IMG/VR virus record: IMGVR_UViG_3300020470_000096 | Span: 1-34,200 of that record | Source: a virus | Lineage: Duplodnaviria > Caudoviricetes | Length of the DNA stretch: 34,200 bases | Direction: 5' to 3' (one strand) | In this document: piece after piece, positions 23,372-32,939 of the stretch | Layout of the letters: every line of letters starts with the position of its first letter | How positions within the stretch are numbered: the stretch's first letter is position 1 | Notes under the pieces: generated by a model | What the model was told of the DNA's origin: nothing | The model's input: the letters and a program-made list of their open reading frames with translations, nothing else | The model's database searches: none | Translations under genes and position numbers: made by a program

Positions 23372-23453
23372 GTTTTATATTTAAAGTGTATACTTACTAT
23401 ATTTACACAAAATCACTTGTTTTTACGTATAAAATAAGTTATTTACAAAAATA

Positions 23454-23544
23454 TGACATTAGGTAGTTATTCTTATACTACTTATAATGGTATTATATAG
23501 AATATAATACATAATATAACTAATAGTGACATAAGGTAGTTACT
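23454..23544 (+). repeat. Direct repeat TGACATWAGGTAGTTA (23454 and 23527)
   Basis: TGACATTAGGTAGTTA vs TGACATAAGGTAGTTA, 15/16 identical, 73 bp apart. Confidence 0.75.
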
Positions 23545-23570
23545 TAAGGTATATTTATTAGCTATTGTCA
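23527..23570. promoter_or_regulatory. TGACA-N34-TGTCA inverted site 1
   Basis: Exact 34-nt spacer, also found at 23807 and 29669. Confidence 0.6.
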
Positions 23571-23806: not shown

Positions 23807-23850
23807 TGACACTATGACATTAATATATATAATTATATGTCATGATGTCA
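23807..23850. promoter_or_regulatory. TGACA-N34-TGTCA inverted site 2, with inner duplicated half-sites
   Basis: TGACA CTA TGACA ... TGTCA TGA TGTCA. Confidence 0.6.
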
Positions 23851-23903
23851 TGTGGTATACATACTCAACATTTTTTATATACAAATAATTCTACACCTTT
23901 TTG

Positions 23904-23934
23904 TACAAACTAAATACGATGTCTAATAGATAAT
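23904..23934 (+). promoter_or_regulatory. Phage promoter-like motif, copy 1
   Basis: TACAAAC TAAATACG N9 AGATAAT. Confidence 0.75.
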
Positions 23935-23956
23935 ATAATAAAGAAATATAAATACT

Positions 23957-24097
23957 ATGACTATATATATTTACAATAACGAAAACAATAATTACATTGA
24001 CCAAATGTATTTAACTAATATTAATAATAAAAAAGAAATAGAAAATAATATAAAAGAATATTATAATTTAAACGAAATTTATTATTCAATAATGTAA
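23957..24097 (+). CDS. Tiny early ORF (46 aa)
   Basis: MTIYIYNNENNNYIDQ...; lies between motif copies 1 and 2. Confidence 0.5.
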   Translation: MTIYIYNNENNNYIDQMYLTNINNKKEIENNIKEYYNLNEIYYSIM

Positions 24098-24100
24098 TAA

Positions 24101-24131
24101 TACAAAGTAAATACTAATAACAATAGATAAT
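24101..24131 (+). promoter_or_regulatory. Phage promoter-like motif, copy 2
   Basis: TACAAAG TAAATACT N9 AGATAAT. Confidence 0.7.
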
Positions 24132-24165
24132 ATAATAAATAATAATAACAATAAATATAATAAAT

Positions 24166-24399
24166 ATGAATACTAATAAATTAACAAATAGATTTGTCAT
24201 AAGTGTAAATGGCATTAAAAATAAAGTAACTAACGAATTCGTGAATAAAAAAGGTGAAAGATTTGTCTATAATCAACACGTAATATTCACTCAATTAAAA
24301 GATAAATTTGAAAACATGAATTGTTTTAAAAAATATAAAACTTATACTTCAACTAATAATTTACCAACTTTCGTTAGAAATCTTGAGAAATTAGTTTAA
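24166..24399 (+). CDS. Hypothetical early protein
   Basis: 77 aa, between motif copies 2 and 3. Confidence 0.65.
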   Translation: MNTNKLTNRFVISVNGIKNKVTNEFVNKKGERFVYNQHVIFTQLKDKFENMNCFKKYKTYTSTNNLPTFVRNLEKLV

Positions 24400-24430
24400 T
24401 ACAAATTAAATACGATTATCAATAGATAAT
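24400..24430 (+). promoter_or_regulatory. Phage promoter-like motif, copy 3
   Basis: TACAAAT TAAATACG N9 AGATAAT. Confidence 0.75.
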
Positions 24431-24484
24431 ATAATAAAGAAGTTTTATAAAATTCGTTGCCTTCTAAAAAATATTAACGAATGA

Positions 24485-24528
24485 TTGAGTAAAAGGTTAA
24501 TGTGAGTTCGATTCTCACTACTCAACTA
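24485..24528 (+). ncRNA. tRNA-like minihelix (acceptor stem plus T arm only)
   Basis: TTGAGTA-AAAGGTTAAT-GTGAG-TTCGATT-CTCAC-TACTCAA-CTA: perfect 7-bp and 5-bp stems with a canonical T loop. Confidence 0.65.
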
Positions 24529-24656
24529 TGAATAAATTAAATAAAATATACGAAGAATTACAATTAATAGAAGAATTCGAATCTAACTTTAATATCACTA
24601 AAGAATCTAAAGAAAGACGAGAATACTTGTTAAAAATAATAAATAAAAATGAGTAA
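24528..24656 (+). CDS. Tiny early ORF (42 aa)
   Basis: MNKLNKIYEELQLIEEFES... Confidence 0.5.
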   Translation: MNKLNKIYEELQLIEEFESNFNITKESKERREYLLKIINKNE

Positions 24657-24813
24657 AATGTTTAAATTAAATCCGAGAATTAAAAACGATATAGAACAAA
24701 TCTTAGATGATTATGAGATAGATGAATTTTATCCTTTAAAAGAACAAGATTTTCATTATTTAGTGAAAAACTTAGTTGAATATGTAGAAAATTATAAAAA
24801 ATATGCAAAATGA
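24649..24813 (+). CDS. Tiny early ORF (54 aa)
   Basis: MSKMFKLNPRIKNDIEQIL...; overlaps both neighbours. Confidence 0.55.
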   Translation: MSKMFKLNPRIKNDIEQILDDYEIDEFYPLKEQDFHYLVKNLVEYVENYKKYAK

Positions 24814-24935
24814 GTAAAATGTATGAATTTGAAGGAAAATTACTAACTAGAAATGAATACTTCAATATAATGTTTGGCAATGAATTTATGAATTCAAATG
24901 ACAAAGGAACTTTAAAAGAATATAAAAATGAGTAA
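24810..24935 (+). CDS. Tiny early ORF (41 aa)
   Basis: MSKMYEFEGKLLTRNEYF...; ATGA overlap. Confidence 0.55.
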   Translation: MSKMYEFEGKLLTRNEYFNIMFGNEFMNSNDKGTLKEYKNE

Positions 24936-25128
24936 AACAAAAGAACTTAGAATGATAATTGATTGTGTAAAAGGAATTGTACATGATGAATTGGTAAAAG
25001 CAGTTGAGTGGCAAGTAGATGACACTTCAATTGGTGAATTAGAAAATGATGAATTTAATGAAAGTACAAATTACATCATGAAAATAACTTTAGAAGAATT
25101 ATTAGATGAAATTAATAGAAATAAATAA
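24928..25128 (+). CDS. Small acidic early protein
   Basis: 66 aa, D/E-rich. Confidence 0.6.
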   Translation: MSKTKELRMIIDCVKGIVHDELVKAVEWQVDDTSIGELENDEFNESTNYIMKITLEELLDEINRNK

Positions 25129-25486
25129 AAATGGTACAGAAATGTATCGATTAGACGATGGTAGATTAGGTAAAATTTATCCAAGTGGTTACGTTAGAGT
25201 AACAATAATAAATCATGGTATTGTTAATGGTAAATATTCTCACCGTGATTCTACTAAAAACAGTAGATGGTATCAAATAAATAAGGTAGAAAAATATAAA
25301 GATGATAAATATCCATCATGGAATTTTCACAGAAGAATATTAATACCACAGAAAAATGACAGATTGTCATTACTTCAAGCATTTAATGATAAAAATTGTG
25401 ACAAAATGACACATAAAATTAAAAAGCTAGAAAGTTACATAAAGAATTTATTGTGGATAATAAACAATGAAAGAAGTAAAAGATGA
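25106..25486 (+). CDS. Hypothetical early protein
   Basis: 126 aa ORF in the overlapping gene string. Confidence 0.65.
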   Translation: MKLIEINKNGTEMYRLDDGRLGKIYPSGYVRVTIINHGIVNGKYSHRDSTKNSRWYQINKVEKYKDDKYPSWNFHRRILIPQKNDRLSLLQAFNDKNCDKMTHKIKKLESYIKNLLWIINNERSKR

Positions 25487-25620
25487 AAAATTTATATTAT
25501 GGTTCAATTTTAAGACAAAATGACATAGATGGTATGACATATTGTCATGAAATTGGTAAATGGATAGATACAGAAGAATTAATAAAACACTATTATGAAA
25601 CAGGTGAAGAAATACGATAG
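25483..25620 (+). CDS. Tiny early ORF (45 aa)
   Basis: MKNLYYGSILRQNDIDGMTYCHEIGKW...; ATGA overlap. Confidence 0.5.
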   Translation: MKNLYYGSILRQNDIDGMTYCHEIGKWIDTEELIKHYYETGEEIR

Positions 25621-25717
25621 AAAAACTAAAACTAAAAGAATTAGTTTATTTAAATTTTCAAGAGCAGAATTTGAAGCATTTGAAAGAGAATATTGGAAGA
25701 AATATAATACAAATTAA
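25595..25717 (+). CDS. Tiny early ORF (40 aa)
   Basis: MKQVKKYDRKTK...; its stop codon is the TAA of motif copy 4. Confidence 0.45.
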   Translation: MKQVKKYDRKTKTKRISLFKFSRAEFEAFEREYWKKYNTN

Positions 25718-25738
25718 ATACGAATACAAATAGATAAT
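25708..25738 (+). promoter_or_regulatory. Phage promoter-like motif, copy 4
   Basis: TACAAAT TAAATACG N9 AGATAAT. Confidence 0.75.
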
Positions 25739-25754
25739 AATAATAAATAAGAAT

Positions 25755-25940
25755 ATGAATATAACAAAGAAAATGATTGATGAGAAATTGCTACAAATAG
25801 CAGAATTTGAAGCAAAATGGGGTGAAAACACTCATACCAGAGCAATGAAAAAATATTGCACGAATGAAAAATATAGAAATAATGTACATGCTTTTAATAA
25901 AGCAAGTGTTAATACAATGCTAGGTTATGAAAAATACTAA
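25755..25940 (+). CDS. Hypothetical early protein
   Basis: 61 aa, directly after motif copy 4. Confidence 0.65.
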   Translation: MNITKKMIDEKLLQIAEFEAKWGENTHTRAMKKYCTNEKYRNNVHAFNKASVNTMLGYEKY

Positions 25941-26091
25941 ATGGTGTTTTAAAAATAGTAGAAAACTAGGTAAAATTGAAGGTAAAATTTATGCCTTGAA
26001 ACTAATGATAAAAGGATTTTGTTCAGATGATAATCCTTTATTAGTACAAATAGAAGAAATAGAAGAATTAGTAAAACAAATAGAATTATGA
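25927..26091 (+). CDS. Tiny early ORF (54 aa)
   Basis: MKNTKWCFKNSRKLGKIEGKIY...; ATGA overlap with the next ORF. Confidence 0.5.
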   Translation: MKNTKWCFKNSRKLGKIEGKIYALKLMIKGFCSDDNPLLVQIEEIEELVKQIEL

Positions 26092-26309
26092 ACAGAGTAA
26101 TAAATAGATCAAGATTTAGAATTGGATTTCACATAAATAAGAAATATAATTTTGTAAAAGGATTAACAATAAGTCAAATCTTAGTATATACTTGGATTGG
26201 AATATTAGCGTTGACAGCTATTTTTGGAATAATTGCAGTATTTGCTACAGCGATTATTGATCCAGAAGGATTTGGAAATGCTATGAATTCAAGTGGATTT
26301 GAATTTTAA
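26088..26309 (+). CDS. Small membrane protein
   Basis: Hydrophobic stretch ILVYTWIGILALTAIFGIIAVFATAII. Confidence 0.6.
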   Translation: MNRVINRSRFRIGFHINKKYNFVKGLTISQILVYTWIGILALTAIFGIIAVFATAIIDPEGFGNAMNSSGFEF

Positions 26310-26310
26310 T

Positions 26311-26524
26311 AGGGAAAAGTCTGGAAACCAAATAGATATTGCTGTCATCGATGCAGGCAACTCTATAGGTAGAAGGGAAAAGTCTGGAAAGATTGTAGAT
26401 AAGAGAACCAGATGGTGCAAGGTGCGTCCTACGCACTGGTAATCTAGTAGATCAGAAAGGTGATATAAACAGAAAGTAGTGATAGTCGCGACCACGAAAT
26501 CATTCCAGTTTCACCCGTTCCCTT
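26311..26524 (+). ncRNA. Candidate structured non-coding RNA upstream of tRNA-fMet
   Basis: GC-richer island, 17-nt direct repeat, several complementary segments, and 5'/3' closing helices. Confidence 0.55.
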
Positions 26525-26529
26525 TATAT

Positions 26530-26601
<72 letters not shown>

Positions 26602-26620
26602 CTAATTTAAATAAAATACA

Positions 26621-26698
26621 ATGGTAGAACAAGGAGCAATTATAACATTATTATTAATAGTGTTAGCATTAGCAATTATATATAAACTATTTAATTAA
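26621..26698 (+). CDS. Tiny single-TM peptide (25 aa)
   Basis: MVEQGAIITLLLIVLALAIIYKLFN, A-rich leader. Confidence 0.45.
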   Translation: MVEQGAIITLLLIVLALAIIYKLFN

Positions 26699-26703
26699 TT
26701 AAA

Positions 26704-26916
26704 ATGAATAAATTTAAACAGAATCACACAATAGTAATCAATATTAAAAATTTGTCTGATGAAAATAGTTGGGCAATGGAAGAAAGATATGAATTAGATA
26801 TGAAACTATTATTTGAAAATAAAGTAATAGACAATAAATATAAAATTATTTATAAAAAATCTAAAATATTAAGAAAAATTATGAATTTTATAGAATTAAA
26901 ATATAATGAATTATAA
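26704..26916 (+). CDS. Hypothetical protein
   Basis: 70 aa. Confidence 0.55.
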   Translation: MNKFKQNHTIVINIKNLSDENSWAMEERYELDMKLLFENKVIDNKYKIIYKKSKILRKIMNFIELKYNEL

Positions 26917-26942
26917 ATTAAATACGAATAAAAATAGATAAT
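26912..26942 (+). promoter_or_regulatory. Phage promoter-like motif, copy 5
   Basis: TATAAAT TAAATACG N9 AGATAAT. Confidence 0.75.
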
Positions 26943-26948
26943 AAATAT

Positions 26949-27161
26949 ATGAAAACTATAAAACACATAAATAAAAATCTAATTTCTGTTAATAAACAGT
27001 TTTATAAAGGTTATTTACTTGGAGATTTACCTCCAACATTTTCTTTCTTATTTAAAGAAGAAATGAAATGGAATGACACAGAAGAAGAATATGAAACTAC
27101 AAAAGTATATGGAATTAGTAAATGGTTTAATTACAAAGGTTTAACATGGATACAATTATGA
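26949..27161 (+). CDS. Hypothetical protein
   Basis: 70 aa, directly after motif copy 5. Confidence 0.65.
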   Translation: MKTIKHINKNLISVNKQFYKGYLLGDLPPTFSFLFKEEMKWNDTEEEYETTKVYGISKWFNYKGLTWIQL

Positions 27162-27433
27162 AGAAATTAACACAAGAAGAATTAAATCAAAGAGCTAGTG
27201 ATAAAGCATTTTCTAAAATATTCTTTTTAGAAGAAGATTTAAAACAGGCTAAAAAGGATGTAATAACAGGTGGTGATGGTAGAAATAGTCAAGAATTATT
27301 AGAAATATGTCGAGATTCTACATATAGAGAATTACAAACCTGGAATTATATAGCTCAATTAATAGAGTTAGATAATAAAGAAGGAACTTCTGATGTAGAA
27401 GTTTTAAAAAATTTAATTAAAATAAATAAATAA
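27146..27433 (+). CDS. Hypothetical helical protein
   Basis: 95 aa; the true start may be the second Met (MKKLTQEE). Confidence 0.6.
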   Translation: MDTIMKKLTQEELNQRASDKAFSKIFFLEEDLKQAKKDVITGGDGRNSQELLEICRDSTYRELQTWNYIAQLIELDNKEGTSDVEVLKNLIKINK

Positions 27434-27568
27434 ATGGCGAATAAACCAATAAAACCTTATATATATCAAGTAACTTATGTTGAAAATGGTCATCAAATGT
27501 CGTTTCAAGGAAGTGCTAGAGATGTTATAATACATATATTGGATTCGCAAATTAAATATGGGAACTAG
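27434..27568 (+). CDS. Tiny ORF (44 aa)
   Basis: MANKPIKPYIYQVTYVENGHQMSF...; fills the gap. Confidence 0.5.
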   Translation: MANKPIKPYIYQVTYVENGHQMSFQGSARDVIIHILDSQIKYGN

Positions 27569-28022
27569 AAGTTTAACAAGAGTAATACCAAGACAAGAAG
27601 GTGTTGCGTATGACAAAGGTCATAAGATGATCAAGAAGTCGATAATAAATATGTACCAACAATATGATGGTTATCCATCTTATGTAGGTGTTAAATTAGC
27701 TGAGTTTGTAAAACCAATTAAAATAATAAATGGTATTTCAGGTTCAGTTAAAATAGGTGAATATGCTAATGGTCCGGGTTGTTTAGCAGCTCAGATAGTG
27801 CAGGAATTTAAAAAAGATGTAGGATATACTTATCTACATGAGTGTAATGGTGAAATTGGAGATCACTGGGAAGAATATATTTATACTCTTTATCCTAAAG
27901 AAGGTGAACCAACTTACATATCTATTTATGATGTATATAATAAATACGTTATGTTTGTAGGCACACCTGATGAATTACTTAAAAAGTATGAAATAAAGGA
28001 TCACAAACTAAATACGGTTTAA
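27558..28022 (+). CDS. Conserved phage protein (MGTRS...YDGYP type), function unknown
   Basis: MGTRSL and MYQQYDGYPS motifs; C-terminal EEYIY. Confidence 0.7.
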   Translation: MGTRSLTRVIPRQEGVAYDKGHKMIKKSIINMYQQYDGYPSYVGVKLAEFVKPIKIINGISGSVKIGEYANGPGCLAAQIVQEFKKDVGYTYLHECNGEIGDHWEEYIYTLYPKEGEPTYISIYDVYNKYVMFVGTPDELLKKYEIKDHKLNTV

Positions 28023-28032
28023 AATAGATAAT
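28002..28032 (+). promoter_or_regulatory. Phage promoter-like motif, copy 6
   Basis: CACAAAC TAAATACG N9 AGATAAT. Confidence 0.75.
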
Positions 28033-28040
28033 ATATATAT

Positions 28041-28286
28041 ATGAATGAAAGAGAATTAGATAGATTAGCTGAAAAAATAGCTAATAAAGTATTAAAAGCT
28101 TTTACAGAGTATTATGATAATCATGAGACTTTGGAAGTATATCGACCCACTGAGAAAGAAATGTTAGAAGTAGAAATAACACGACTTAAGGGTCTTTTGT
28201 CGCAATATGAACAACGTGAAGAGTATGAAAAAGCGGCAATTATTAAAAGAAAAATAGAAATAATTAATAAAAAATACAAAAAATGA
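28041..28286 (+). CDS. Small protein with C-terminal UVR-like coiled coil
   Basis: LLSQYEQREEYEKAAIIKRKI matches the UvrB/UvrC (UVR) EdYExAA motif. Confidence 0.6.
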   Translation: MNERELDRLAEKIANKVLKAFTEYYDNHETLEVYRPTEKEMLEVEITRLKGLLSQYEQREEYEKAAIIKRKIEIINKKYKK

Positions 28287-29116
28287 GTGATTTTAAAGTA
28301 ATGCTAGCACATCCAGTTGGTAAAAAAGAATTTGATAGAGATTCTTTTATACAACCAAAACTTGATGGAGTTAGATGCTATATAACAAAAGACGGTGCTT
28401 TTAGCCGCAATCATAAAGAGTTTAAAACTGTAAATCATATAAGAAGAGCATTTAAACCTTTATTTAGAAACCACCCAAACTTAGTGGTGGATGGTGAATT
28501 ATATAATCATCGATTTAAAGACAATTTCAATAAAATTATATCCCTTGTGAGAAAACAAAAGCCTAATGCATCAGACATTAAAGAGGCTACTAAATATATA
28601 CAATTTCATTGGTATGATTATTATTCTGATATCCATAATTATCCTTTTAGAATAAGAAATGAAAATATTAAAAGTAAAATTAAAGATTTAGGTTCTAAAC
28701 ATATCGTTGATGTACCAACACATGAAGTATCTATTATAGAAAGTGCTAAATTATGGCACGAGGATTTTCTAAAACAAGGATATGAAGGTAGTATAGTAAG
28801 ACTTAATAAACCTTATGAACAAAAAAGAAGTTATAATTTACAAAAATTTAAGGATTTTCAAGATTCTGAAGCAACAATTACAGGATGGGTTGAAGGCCAA
28901 GGAAAGAGAACTGGTACAATAGGAAAATTCTTAGCTATTGATAGCAATGGAATTAAATTTGGTTTACCAGTTATGGATGATTATAAAGTAATGGAAAAAA
29001 TGTATGATATAGCAGACTGGTATATTGGTAAAACTGCAACCTTTACATATTTCCAAAGAACTCCCTCTGGATCATATAGACATCCTCTATTTAAATGTAT
29101 CAGAAACTATGAATAG
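28283..29116 (+). CDS. lig: ATP-dependent DNA ligase
   Basis: Motif I QPKLDGVR, III VDGELY, IV YEGSIVR, V LQKFK, C-terminal OB fold with YRHP. Confidence 0.93.
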   Translation: MSDFKVMLAHPVGKKEFDRDSFIQPKLDGVRCYITKDGAFSRNHKEFKTVNHIRRAFKPLFRNHPNLVVDGELYNHRFKDNFNKIISLVRKQKPNASDIKEATKYIQFHWYDYYSDIHNYPFRIRNENIKSKIKDLGSKHIVDVPTHEVSIIESAKLWHEDFLKQGYEGSIVRLNKPYEQKRSYNLQKFKDFQDSEATITGWVEGQGKRTGTIGKFLAIDSNGIKFGLPVMDDYKVMEKMYDIADWYIGKTATFTYFQRTPSGSYRHPLFKCIRNYE

Positions 29117-29375
29117 TTTATCAGATTTAATAATTCCATCCTTTATGGCTCTTATTATGATGTTAAGTGGTTATATGGTAGCTTTAGTAGGAGACTGGAT
29201 AAAAAAAGTAATCATTATACCTGTTATATGTATGTTACTGTTTGATGGATTGATAGTATATATGTTTTATGCTATTGGAACAACAAAACTACAAATGATG
29301 ATGGGTATAATGCTTGGAACTATATTAAAAATTATTATATTTATATTATATCAAAAATATTTAAGTGATGAGTAG
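29109..29375 (+). CDS. Small multi-pass membrane protein
   Basis: Three hydrophobic segments; start reassigned to MNSLSD at 29109, overlapping the ligase stop. Confidence 0.55.
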   Translation: MNSLSDLIIPSFMALIMMLSGYMVALVGDWIKKVIIIPVICMLLFDGLIVYMFYAIGTTKLQMMMGIMLGTILKIIIFILYQKYLSDE

Positions 29376-29493
29376 AATTAAATTATATAAACACATGATT
29401 AAAGTTAATGCATTCGGTATTAACGCTAAACGTAAAACTAAAAAAGATGTTCGGAATAAAAAATATGCCAAAAGCAAGAAAAAAATCTCATAA
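29368..29493 (+). CDS. Tiny Lys-rich ORF (41 aa)
   Basis: MSRIKLYKHMIKVNAFGINAKRKTKKDVRNKKYAKSKKKIS. Confidence 0.4.
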   Translation: MSRIKLYKHMIKVNAFGINAKRKTKKDVRNKKYAKSKKKIS

Positions 29494-29668
29494 AGATTAT
29501 CTATGGGATTCTATCTACGATTTAAGAAGAGACATTACAAATTATGTTTTAACATGCAGAGCGAAAGATAAGAAGATTAACGTAAAAAAATTAAATCATA
29601 AAGCTGAATTAATAATTAAATATTCAGATAAATTAAGAAAATTTGAAACTCAGCCCACGCTGAGATAA
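29408..29668 (+). CDS. Basic hypothetical protein (start uncertain)
   Basis: ORF track; likely starts at MFGIK or MPKAR. Confidence 0.55.
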   Translation: MHSVLTLNVKLKKMFGIKNMPKARKKSHKDYLWDSIYDLRRDITNYVLTCRAKDKKINVKKLNHKAELIIKYSDKLRKFETQPTLR

Positions 29669-29712
29669 TGACAATAGGTAATAATATATAATAGAATAAC
29701 AGGCTAATGTCA
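29669..29712. promoter_or_regulatory. TGACA-N34-TGTCA inverted site 3, overlapping the start of the HTH gene
   Basis: TGACAATAGGTA...GCTAATGTCAC; the ATG at 29707 lies within the right arm. Confidence 0.6.
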
Positions 29713-30321
29713 CAAAGACGGATCGATTATTTAAATCGAAATAGAATTATATACAATAGAGATCCAGTAAATGATATACCAACACAGGTTTATCATTGGG
29801 GAAAGTATTATCAATATGGGACTTTCGAGTGCTATGAATTATTTAAAAGTAAAGCTAAAATAAGTAGTTTTAAATCATTAAAATGGCATTTGTTAGTCCT
29901 AAGATACTTAAATCCTGACTTGGAAGATCATAAATTTAAAGATATAGCATATTTTATAACTAATAAAAAAAATAATTTTATTACATTTAATATTAAGGAA
30001 AAATATTTAATAGACATGCTTAATAAATTAGATGATGAATTAGATAAACCTCCAGTTAATAGAAAAAGAAAAATAATATTTAATCAACAAACAGGTTTAA
30101 CTACTGAAGAAAAGCTTAAAATAGTAGGACAATTAGTAGGAAGAAATAAAAGTATTTATGAAGATGATATTTATCAATGCATGTTAGATATAAATGACCT
30201 TGGTAAAAAAATTACAATAAAGAAAATAGCTAATTCTTTAAATTGTTCTACAAGAACAGTTTACAGAACAATGGGAAATCAATTAAAACAAGAAAAAGAT
30301 CAATTAAATAAAATGATATGA
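29707..30321 (+). CDS. DNA-binding protein with C-terminal helix-turn-helix
   Basis: ITIKKIANSLNCSTRTVYRTM HTH signature. Confidence 0.75.
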   Translation: MSQRRIDYLNRNRIIYNRDPVNDIPTQVYHWGKYYQYGTFECYELFKSKAKISSFKSLKWHLLVLRYLNPDLEDHKFKDIAYFITNKKNNFITFNIKEKYLIDMLNKLDDELDKPPVNRKRKIIFNQQTGLTTEEKLKIVGQLVGRNKSIYEDDIYQCMLDINDLGKKITIKKIANSLNCSTRTVYRTMGNQLKQEKDQLNKMI

Positions 30322-31070
30322 AAAAATATAATATACCGAATTATATTAAGTATAAAGAGGATTTAAAAACCTCTCAACCAGTTAAAAAAGATTTATTAGA
30401 TTATGATCGTAATGAATTAATAGTTAAATTTCTACCATTAGTAGAAAATATAGCTAGAAAATTCTCTACTTCTCAACAAGCTGCTGGAGTGATGAGTATT
30501 TTAGATTTTATACAAGAAGGATCTGCTGGATTAACTAAAGCTGTAGATAAATTAGATTATACAATGCTAAAGGATTCTAAAGACAAGGAGAAAACTTTAA
30601 AATCTTTCTTTTTTAAAAGAATTAAAGGAGCTATAAGACGAGCAATAGATAAAAATAGAGGTGATATACGTATACCTGAGCATAAAATGAACGAAATACG
30701 TAAAAATCCTAAGGATAAGAAAATGGTAGAAATGTTTTTTAATTCTATCTTTTTGAGTATTGATGCTAAATTACAAACTCAAGATGAAGAATTATTATAT
30801 CAAATACCAGATGATTCTGAGCCTTATAATATTGGATTATTAAATACTTACTTAAAAGGTTTAATGAGAAAATATTTAACTGAAAGTGAATACGAAGTAT
30901 TAAGATTATCTTATGGACTTGATTGTGATAAACATTCTGCAAAGGAAATTGCCCCTAAAATAGGGATCAAAGGACCTAGTAGTTATGTACGTATTTCAGA
31001 ACTAAAAAAACAAGCTGTAAATAAATTAATAGACAATGTAGATCACTCGCAAGTGATTGATTATCTGTAA
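30318..31070 (+). CDS. Phage sigma-70 family RNA polymerase sigma factor
   Basis: Region 2 LPLVENIARKF..LDFIQEG..GLTKAVDK..IRRAI, IRIPEH; region 4 LTESEYEVLRLSYGL..SAKEIA. Confidence 0.9.
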   Translation: MKKYNIPNYIKYKEDLKTSQPVKKDLLDYDRNELIVKFLPLVENIARKFSTSQQAAGVMSILDFIQEGSAGLTKAVDKLDYTMLKDSKDKEKTLKSFFFKRIKGAIRRAIDKNRGDIRIPEHKMNEIRKNPKDKKMVEMFFNSIFLSIDAKLQTQDEELLYQIPDDSEPYNIGLLNTYLKGLMRKYLTESEYEVLRLSYGLDCDKHSAKEIAPKIGIKGPSSYVRISELKKQAVNKLIDNVDHSQVIDYL

Positions 31071-31132
31071 CTTACAGGTAGTAAATCTTCAAATTTATAT
31101 GTAATTATATTAATAGACAAACCCAAATACCT

Positions 31133-31648
31133 ATGAATATCAACGATAAGTTAGCAACTATTCAGACTAAATTTAAATCGAAAAAAAGTAGATTTAATTC
31201 ATTCGGCAAATATTACTTCCGATCCGCCGAAGACATTCTCGAAGCAACAAAACCCTTTTTATTAGAATTAGGAGTTACAGTGGTATTAAATGAAAATTTA
31301 ATAGCTAGTGAACCTATGCCTATACTTGAGAGTATGGCAACTATTTCTGATGGAGAAAATTCTATTCAAGCAACAGCTTTAGTAGGAGTAGATCTTATGC
31401 AGAAAGGTATGCAAACACCTCAACAATTTGGGTCAGCATCGAGTTATGGGAAGAAATATGCTTTAGGTAATTTATTTTTAATTGATGACACACAAGATAG
31501 TGATGCTGTAAATGATCATAAAACCACTATGAGTTCAGATCAAGTAGAAAAAGCTAAACAGTTTATTAAGTCAGGAGGAAAAATAGATGCAATTAAAGCT
31601 AAATACTCTTTAACTAAAGAAGTTGAAAAGGAATTAACAACACTCTAA
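31133..31648 (+). CDS. ERF-family single-strand annealing protein
   Basis: NSFGKYYFRSAEDIL and QQFGSASSYGKKYALGNLFLIDDTQDSD (ERF motif). Confidence 0.88.
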   Translation: MNINDKLATIQTKFKSKKSRFNSFGKYYFRSAEDILEATKPFLLELGVTVVLNENLIASEPMPILESMATISDGENSIQATALVGVDLMQKGMQTPQQFGSASSYGKKYALGNLFLIDDTQDSDAVNDHKTTMSSDQVEKAKQFIKSGGKIDAIKAKYSLTKEVEKELTTL

Positions 31649-32380
31649 ATGACGAAAAAAGAGATTTTAAAAAAGTTAGAAAATGATGAAGATTATTATG
31701 GAGCATTTGGTAAACAATATCTTAGTAATTCTGATATTTCTACTTTATTAAAAAACCCTTTAGCGTTACATACACCTAGTAAACAGACACCTGCGTTTTT
31801 GATTGGCGGCTATTTTCATACCGCCATTCTTGAACCAGATAAGCTTAAGAAGTTTAAAATTATAAAGTCTAATACAAGGAATACAAAAGCGTATAAGGAG
31901 ATATCAGATGGAGAATTATGTTTATTACAACAAGAAGTAGATCAAATAGAACTTATGGTTGATACTGTTTTAGCTAATAATGTTTGTAAAGATCTAATTC
32001 GAGGTAAAAAAGTAGAATATGAAATTCCAGGCATTTCCGAAATAGAAGGTGAACTATGGAAAGGTAAAGCTGATATAATAAATCATGATGAAAGAGTTAT
32101 TGTAGATTTAAAAACCACCTCAGATATAGATAATTTTAGATATAGTGCTTCGCGTTATAATTATGATAGCCAAGCTTTTATTTATAGTAAATTATTTGGA
32201 TATGAGATGATATTTATAACTATAGATAAAACAACTCATCAAATAAAAATTTGTGAATGCTCAGATGCTTTCTATGATAAGGGTCGTGAGAAAGTAAAAG
32301 AAGCTGTAGCTCAATACAAATTATTTTTTAAATCACCAGAATTCGATCCTAAACAATTTTTTAAAACTGAAATTTTATAA
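31649..32380 (+). CDS. PD-(D/E)XK exonuclease, RecE/DUF3799-like
   Basis: LSNSDI, GGYFHTAILEP, KGKADII, IVDLKTT, YDSQAFIY. Confidence 0.85.
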   Translation: MTKKEILKKLENDEDYYGAFGKQYLSNSDISTLLKNPLALHTPSKQTPAFLIGGYFHTAILEPDKLKKFKIIKSNTRNTKAYKEISDGELCLLQQEVDQIELMVDTVLANNVCKDLIRGKKVEYEIPGISEIEGELWKGKADIINHDERVIVDLKTTSDIDNFRYSASRYNYDSQAFIYSKLFGYEMIFITIDKTTHQIKICECSDAFYDKGREKVKEAVAQYKLFFKSPEFDPKQFFKTEIL

Positions 32381-32381
32381 T

Positions 32382-32591
32382 ATGGCAAGAATAAATAGAC
32401 GTACAAAAACTTGTACAATGACAGGATTACGATTTCCTGTATCACAATTTTATAGAAATGCAAATACAGTGGATGGATATCATCCTTATTCTAAAGTAGC
32501 AGATAACTTTAGACGTAGATTAAAAGATACTAACGTAACTACTATGGATTTACGTGAACTCTTTACTAACTTAAATACAACAGTAGCATAA
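32382..32591 (+). CDS. Small basic hypothetical protein
   Basis: 69 aa; KTCTMTG..PVSQFY..DGYHPYSK, a degenerate Zn-ribbon-like pattern. Confidence 0.6.
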   Translation: MARINRRTKTCTMTGLRFPVSQFYRNANTVDGYHPYSKVADNFRRRLKDTNVTTMDLRELFTNLNTTVA

Positions 32592-32902
32592 TGGCATCAA
32601 TATTAAAAACAAGTATTAATTTAAATAATATCCCTAAGGATAAAATCATTGTAGGAGCTAAAGGTAAGTATTTACCTATTAGTATAACTTTAAATGATGA
32701 AGTAGATCAGTTTGGAAATAATGGTCCTGTAATTGTAGAACAAACTAAAGAAGAAAGAGAAGCTAAAGTAGGTAAAGTATATCTTGGTAATGCTAGAGTC
32801 GTTTGGACCAATGGTCAAAATGTAGAAGCGGCCCCAAGAATGGATCAACCTAAAGCAATGCCTAAAGCAGAACCAGCAGAAGAACCTGATTTACCATTTT
32901 AA
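32591..32902 (+). CDS. Putative single-stranded DNA-binding protein
   Basis: Beta-rich core with acidic tail ending DLPF, located beside recombination genes. Confidence 0.65.
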   Translation: MASILKTSINLNNIPKDKIIVGAKGKYLPISITLNDEVDQFGNNGPVIVEQTKEEREAKVGKVYLGNARVVWTNGQNVEAAPRMDQPKAMPKAEPAEEPDLPF

Positions 32903-32933
32903 TATATACTAAATACGAAAATTCGCAGATAAT
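32903..32933 (+). promoter_or_regulatory. Phage promoter-like motif, copy 7
   Basis: TATATAC TAAATACG N9 AGATAAT, upstream of the primase-helicase. Confidence 0.7.
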
Positions 32934-32939
32934 AAATAT

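Follow-up and report, generated by a model that had tools for sequence, protein, structure and literature searches.

The 3' end of the vertebrate long noncoding RNA MALAT1 consists of an ENE triple helix followed by the tRNA-like mascRNA, with an RNase P cut between the two (PMC8457004). Plant mitochondrial t-elements have been proposed to guide cleavage by RNase P and RNase Z and so to generate mRNA ends (PMC1920247). Bacterial RNase P also cleaves hairpins made of an acceptor stem, a T stem and a T loop, measuring about 12 bp from the T loop and pairing its GGU with the RCC of the substrate (PMC11143913). The phage cassette described here, a predicted pseudoknot followed by a 43-nt mimic of the top half of a tRNA, was found in a linear virus record of 34.2 kb that was analysed whole and is called the window below. 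It is a real, selected and uncatalogued variant of tRNA-mimic RNA punctuation, and by analogy it would work like a t-element or a MALAT1 end while being a member of neither family. In the tRNA-like domain of tmRNA (RF00023), an acceptor stem is combined with a stemless D loop containing GG and a T arm. The phage mimic has the same acceptor stem, stemless GG loop and T arm, but it lacks both the G3:U70 pair (G:C or A:T pairs occupy that position) and an mRNA-like domain, and the tmRNA model gave a weak score on the T arm of relatives only.

As at the MALAT1 end, a putatively protective fold with U-rich and A-rich strands lies directly 5' of a non-decoding tRNA-like element (at a distance of 2-3 nt in the window, and with such an element beside 53 of 54 knots), and an RNase P cut is predicted between the two parts. 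Unlike the vertebrate RNA with its ENE stem-loop, as described in PMC8457004, the cassette belongs to a bacterial virus and carries a 45-nt H-type pseudoknot; an ENE stem-loop whose U-rich internal loop forms a triple helix with an A-rich tract was not found, and the mimic has neither a D stem, nor an anticodon arm, nor a match in Rfam. With t-elements it shares a non-decoding tRNA-like fold with a conserved T arm, placed between genes. The t-elements of PMC1920247 have a non-canonical cloverleaf, about 70 nt in the mapped ccmC element, and mapped ends, whereas the phage mimic is 43 nt long, viral and coupled to a pseudoknot. The AT1-type synthetic RNase P substrates of PMC11143913 likewise stack an acceptor stem on a T stem and T loop, but the mimic is natural and has a 10-nt GG linker, an 11-bp helix, and ACTA replacing RCCA. 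No Rfam family reached its cut-off for either the knot or the mimic, and the element is undescribed in the literature searched. It may sit among the 10,006 unnamed candidates of Fremin et al. (PMC10690425); the T-arm motif and three contig names were absent from supplements 3-6 of that paper.

The mimic and the tRNA used to set its register are as follows.

24486 to 24528, plus strand: tRNA top-half mimic of 43 nt, assigned from sequence, folding and family alignment
24486-91 with 24519-24, plus strand: acceptor-like stem of 6 bp, with an optional extra pair 24485:24525
24492-24501, plus strand: linker of 10 nt, with a D-loop-like GG at 24495-96
24502-06 with 24514-18, plus strand: T stem of 5 bp, enclosing the loop TTCGATT at 24507-13
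24525-28, plus strand: ACTA tail, overlapping the ATG at 24528
26530 to 26602, plus strand: canonical initiator-type tRNA-Met(CAT), the register control (A73 then CTA)

A T stem with a TTCGATT loop had been proposed in an earlier sequence-only reading of this DNA, and both sequence and folding confirmed it. The same reading described a 7-bp acceptor stem ending in ACTA. TTGAGTA (24485-91) does pair with TACTCAA (24519-25), but A24525 is then used twice; in the tRNA-Met at 26530-26602 the A of ACTA is the unpaired discriminator. The outer pair, at the position of 24485:24525, is broken in 16 of the 30 copies of the window's class, and the conserved form is therefore 6 bp plus 5 bp plus ACTA. 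The 10 nt said to replace the D, anticodon and variable arms are present as a linker, but this linker is no random remnant, for its GG is kept. The elbow of tRNA is the basis on which we infer that the linker is a D loop minus its stem. Compared with a tRNA, the mimic has the 5-bp T stem with a TTCRANY loop, has only the 10-nt linker where a cloverleaf has D and anticodon arms, and offers either a 7-bp acceptor stem or ACTA with an unpaired discriminator, not both. ARAGORN did not call it as a tRNA and found no tmRNA in the window. A Watson-Crick minihelix of 6+5 bp with a T loop occurred twice in 300 block-shuffled windows versus once in the real window, which exceeds chance, but folding energy was weak by itself (z -1.9; 11 of 200 shuffles were equally good).

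This unremarkable folding energy, together with a score of 21.9 bits for the Rfam tRNA model (RF00005) on the mimic, below the cut-off of 29, would suit a tRNA gene in decay or a functionless integration (attP) remnant. Comparison with relatives makes that reading highly improbable. An exact pattern search found four viral relatives, all with a 10-nt linker. With a pairing-blind pattern, in which the linker and T loop were fixed and the stems left free, we found at least 122 matches at 120 or more loci, with 77 distinct viral cores, and estimated about 250 viral stretches; gene-prediction, tRNA and Rfam scans miss the element despite this number, obtained with one narrow pattern. Among the matches listed, all five pairs of the T stem were formed in 74 of the 77 distinct cores. 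For the 74 cores with enough flank, the T stem failed in 3 and the acceptor in 7, and at least five of six acceptor pairs were formed in 64; in 34 the 6-bp acceptor followed a position that was mostly unpaired, and in 30, which form the window's class, there were 6+5 contiguous pairs. The covariation alignment took in only these 30 window-class members, chosen for pairing, with linker and loop invariant by construction, and in it 94% of cells were paired versus 40-52% for slid controls, with both-sided changes at 11 of 12 pairs. As an independent test, minihelices were picked by the neighbouring 77-aa protein alone: GG was present in the linker of 35/35 distinct minihelices and the ACTA end in 27/35, and the real tRNAs of the same loci ended in ACTA or ACAA in 18/32. 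The acceptor sequence drifts freely at every position while its shape is kept, and no identity elements are retained. Each of the five records searched held a single copy of the mimic pattern. In the related locus L008 the whole 92-nt unit (24437-24528) is near-unchanged between different flanking genes and its tail lacks an ATG, and the copy in L114 has diverged, its acceptor, T stem and upstream stem showing two-sided changes.

Judged by these comparisons, the minihelix is real and under selection. The covariation, the kept short GG linker and the occurrence of a full tRNA in the slot in 0 of 68 relatives all contradict decay, in agreement with the sequence-only reading, which had argued for selection; the compensatory changes and conserved short linker that it proposed to look for in relatives were found, and its homologs did not turn out to be full-length tRNAs. 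In addition, among 301 genomes from the likely host family the pattern was present in just one, and there it lay on the contig through which that genome had been included, so the mimic is no copy of host DNA.

Variants of the mimic were also seen. In L281, L303, L312, L313 and L344 the T loop is extended and the GG linker is different, with the same knot upstream. Longer mimics, composed of a GG loop, an inserted helix and a T arm, occur in L253, L260, L336, L365, L373, L378, L321 and L322; they have a tmRNA-domain-like layout, lie downstream of the 77-aa orthologue and are uncalled as tRNA. Because inserts of this kind lie between the GG loop and the T arm in some loci, conservation covers the top half and leaves the bottom half free.

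Upstream of the mimic lies the second part of the cassette.

24438 to 24482, plus strand: predicted H-type pseudoknot, with stems P1 (24438-42/24461-65) and P2 (24452-59/24475-82)
24443-51 and 24466-74, plus strand: its loop 1, U-rich, and its loop 3, A-rich, with predicted base triples

A 7-bp hairpin had been read here; ATTCGTT (24452-58) pairs with AACGAAT (24476-82) as claimed, but this is really stem P2 of a pseudoknot whose P1 had been missed. The 3' end of the knot is 2-3 nt ahead of the mimic in the window. The knot counts behind 77-aa orthologues come from profile searches, a regular-expression finder having been discarded because 41 of 354 shuffled segments were positive and evident cases were missed. 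Of 96 loci, 24 had a knot no more than 8 nt from the mimic, versus a shuffle expectation of 4.6 and 0 of 95 control stretches. P2 was 98% paired in the knot subtype of the window (n=7), with one two-sided change common to L114 and L206; L008 has one broken outer pair in P2, and inspection by eye showed that L114 and L206 have a P1 that is shorter or altered on both strands. Another subtype (n=13) showed two-sided changes at 5 of 11 pairs. The SAM-II and SAM-V models (RF00521, RF01826) gave no match at the knot up to an E of 10. The window has a single knot, and two knot hits were found in 6 of 53 loci, in tandem in five (L251, L267, L343, L351 and L362). A second conserved upstream fold, unlike the main knot, precedes the mimic in L151, L185, L188, L205, L271 and L368; in L185 it comes after a main-type knot.

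The majority of marine mimic copies sit behind orthologues of one small gene.

24166 to 24399, plus strand: 77-aa ORF, whose orthologues usually lie next upstream of the knot and half-tRNA cassette

The 77-aa protein had no match in Pfam over cut-off, in PHROG, in NCBIfam or by fold: its model reached a pLDDT of 86, but Foldseek returned none at E 0.001, the best Z was 2.6, and the Atlas gave no usable match. This early protein is widespread, with at least 474 viral stretches, and two copies are apparent in some loci. We fetched 157 loci by the protein alone, taking the 77 best viral and the 80 best metagenomic ones out of several hundred, and counted slot contents in the 118 distinct loci, window included, that had at least 350 nt downstream. 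Knot and T-loop element occurred together in 53 of these, the knot only in 1, the T-loop element only in 15 and neither in 49; with training sequences left out, the corresponding numbers were 22, 1, 15 and 49. Thus 53 of the 54 knots behind 77-aa orthologues were accompanied by a T-loop (tRNA-like) element. The Fisher p of 1e-18 for this association is overstated, since related phages are not independent samples. Two of the 15 T-loop-only loci look false, and several have variant knots by eye. ARAGORN found no tRNA in any of the 68 T-loop-positive segments. The knot started within 30 nt of the stop codon of the 77-aa gene in 36/54 cases, and a promoter motif between gene and knot was absent in 50/54 and present in 4/54.

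In 5 of the 118 loci the slot is occupied by a type I hammerhead core, suggesting that it is used for RNA cutting. In L379 (2707-2759) the Hammerhead_1 match had an E of 1e-4, below the cut-off, and in L206 (161-239) a core of 21 bits, also below the cut-off, lies 11 nt 5' of a window-type knot. Hammerhead cores at or near the slot in the early region were seen as well in L273, L353, L381 and L387. Terminators as a general substitute for the cassette were considered and dropped, since a crude terminator test was positive in only 3 of the 49 loci without it.

The cassette is flanked by a promoter-like motif and a further small ORF.

24109 to 24132, plus strand: promoter-like motif copy 2, which from its position would drive the 77-aa gene and read into the cassette
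24408 to 24431, plus strand: promoter-like motif copy 3 of 7, with a predicted start at about 24436-37, directly before P1
24528 to 24656, plus strand: 42-aa ORF, with its ATG overlapping the ACTA tail
30318 to 31070, plus strand: phage sigma-70-family factor, candidate reader of the repeated promoter-like motif

The seven copies of the motif span 23912-32934, and gene modules seem to be exchanged among relatives at or close to these copies. The motif is unlike the housekeeping consensus of Bacteroidota. In copies 5-7 the motif and the next ATG are 5-7 nt apart, which makes a transcription start no more than about 5 nt past the motif likely. P1 begins 6 nt past copy 3, where copies 5-7 have their ATG, and hence about 1-2 nt past the predicted start; L008 and L114 are alike in this. 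The dedicated promoter-like motif of the sequence-only reading does exist as copy 3 at 24408-24431, but it is confined to a lineage, being found in 4 of 54 knot-bearing loci.

Much the same holds for the ATG noted in the tail of the mimic. It is present at 24528, but only 9 of 64 members have their first ATG no more than 3 nt from the stem, so that it too is a lineage feature. This count weighs against a reading in which the element hides the start region of the downstream gene until it is processed, thereby controlling translation. Positions -4 to -14 relative to the ATG at 24528 are paired with a probability above 0.9, and the 42-aa ORF belongs to a real small-protein family. However, the L008 tail has no ATG, and the L206 copy of the gene has its start 15 nt past the stem. 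We regard translational control as very unlikely.

We judge the chance slightly better than even that this tRNA top-half mimic steers host RNase P to cut the early phage transcript, with the knot capping the new 3' end; an mRNA-processing tag is thus the best supported of the options that the earlier reading offered. The GG of the linker would dock on the T loop and rebuild the tRNA elbow. RNase P would cut before 24485, following its 12-bp ruler, or before 24486, following a pairing of ACU with the GGU of the enzyme that would include one G-U wobble. With a cut at either place the upstream RNA would end 2-3 nt past the knot, and the knot with this short tail would block 3'-5' exonucleases on the upstream message. 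The downstream leader may be freed by RNase Z or by trimming. In the lineage of the window, an additional product, an RNA of about 48 nt containing the knot alone, would be expected from the extra promoter at the 5' edge of the knot. A drifting acceptor sequence with a constant shape is what is expected for a nuclease that reads shape. Type A RNase P RNA is present in 13/13 genomes from the likely host family, and the 5 loci inspected, of 6, all have a GGGTAG segment.

Several observations run against this processing model. The metatranscriptome contig of a close relative (X1) spans the cassette unbroken, although contigs cannot show ends; two RNA runs (X2, X5) left the cassette uncovered and are uninformative. 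The helix has 11 bp (or 11 plus a mismatch) versus 12, and the end is ACTA versus RCCA, although the real tRNAs of these loci often end in ACTA or ACAA too (18/32). Neither element is present in 49 of 118 orthologous loci, and tandem knots, seen in five loci, are not needed by a simple cap. In the window, L008 and L114, where the knot is at the predicted start, and in L206, with its hammerhead 11 nt 5', the knot would cap little or no message. If the model is true, the cassette is a MALAT1-like protected RNA end (a structured cap plus an RNase P-cut tRNA mimic) of about 90 bases in bacterial viruses, and also a natural, selection-shaped minimal RNase P substrate that puts the requirements of the enzyme to the test with a helix of 11 bp, a GG loop lacking a stem, and ACUA at the end. 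It is small enough for direct in vitro work and could serve as a compact processing or stabilising unit.

The position of P1 about 1-2 nt past the predicted start in the window, and similarly in L008 and L114, the hammerhead core that L206 has 11 nt ahead of its copy of the knot, and the tandem knots in five loci all suit a different reading, in which the knot itself is the product. It would be a small RNA of about 45-50 nt with a host protein or a small molecule as its binding partner, for example as a decoy like a type III antitoxin. RNase P would make its 3' end, and a promoter, a hammerhead or decay would set its 5' end, the mimic being a release tag. Type III antitoxins are described as H-type pseudoknots arranged in tandem, each 34-36 nt long (PMC5086642), and pseudo-ToxI mimics are employed by phage PhiTE (PMC3475682). 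The likeness to the phage knot lies in small H-type pseudoknots that are sometimes in tandem. Unlike those antitoxins as the two papers describe them, the knot has no evident toxin gene beside it, its 77-aa neighbour having no Pfam match over cut-off, is mostly single copy and is accompanied by a tRNA-like element in 53 of 54 cases. Furthermore, ToxN (PF13958) was over cut-off in 0 of 301 host-family genomes in a search that had no positive control and covered this one type III family, the knot matched neither SAM-II, SAM-V nor any Rfam family, and 50 of 54 knots lie in a 3' UTR without a promoter motif of their own. We consider the knot as product unlikely. A broader form of the idea, which we likewise rate as unlikely, is that in marine phages the 43-nt mimic releases a pseudoknot RNA belonging to an undescribed class of trans-acting early counter-defence decoys or ligand sponges, its other end set by the promoter or a hammerhead ribozyme and the RNA sometimes made in tandem.

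It is also conceivable, in our view quite unlikely, that no 5' cut occurs and that trimming after A24525 and CCA addition leave either a stable 3' end made of knot and tRNA-like part or a free RNA of about 90-95 nt acting as a decoy for tRNA-binding proteins. The 3' tRNA-like structures of plant viruses, which have upstream pseudoknots, resemble such an arrangement. The discriminator-like A and tRNA-type trailer are conserved, L008 keeps the 92-nt unit intact between different flanking genes, and each of the five records has one copy, all of which would fit. However, aminoacylation identity is absent, the acceptor pairs varying at all positions, and there is no anticodon loop to engage anticodon nucleases. 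An elbow on an 11-12 bp helix with a short leader is, moreover, the textbook shape of an RNase P substrate in the account of PMC11143913, which weighs against an uncut 5' side. The sequence-only reading had put forward a decoy against tRNA-sensing or tRNA-cleaving defences; no positive evidence for it emerged, the mimic having no anticodon loop, a drifting acceptor and a tie to the upstream knot.

The phage carries structural-type genes on the minus strand and small plus-strand genes from about 23900 onward, and a Shine-Dalgarno motif was found at 0 of 29 start codons examined. It encodes a GroEL, an ATP-dependent ligase-like protein and the sigma-70-family factor. The GroEL and sigma content, judged without phylogeny, fits the 'group 2' putative Flavobacteriaceae phages as described in PMC5332604. 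The element matched genome bins four times, once in Flavobacteriaceae and three times in Gammaproteobacteria, and because of this split we only infer that the host belongs to Flavobacteriaceae. In the GenBank phage collection no record covered 80% of the element, and the 77-aa protein and the sigma factor were unmatched, so that no cultured relative with RNA data was found.

Two further features of the window were recorded. Immediately 5' of the tRNA-Met is a GC-richer non-coding insert (26309-26529) with a repeated 16-nt motif. It is missing from the close relatives L007 and L009 and from the X1 contig and has no match in Rfam, and L111 and L112 have a similar order of motifs ahead of the same tRNA; the insert is possibly a mobile structured RNA freed by 5' processing of the tRNA. 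The strand-switch region contains inverted-repeat hairpins at 23440-23570 and 23808-23854 with GTGACA/TGTCAC-type ends. Many relatives have similar hairpins behind the 77-aa orthologue, and those near the strand switch are possibly DNA sites.
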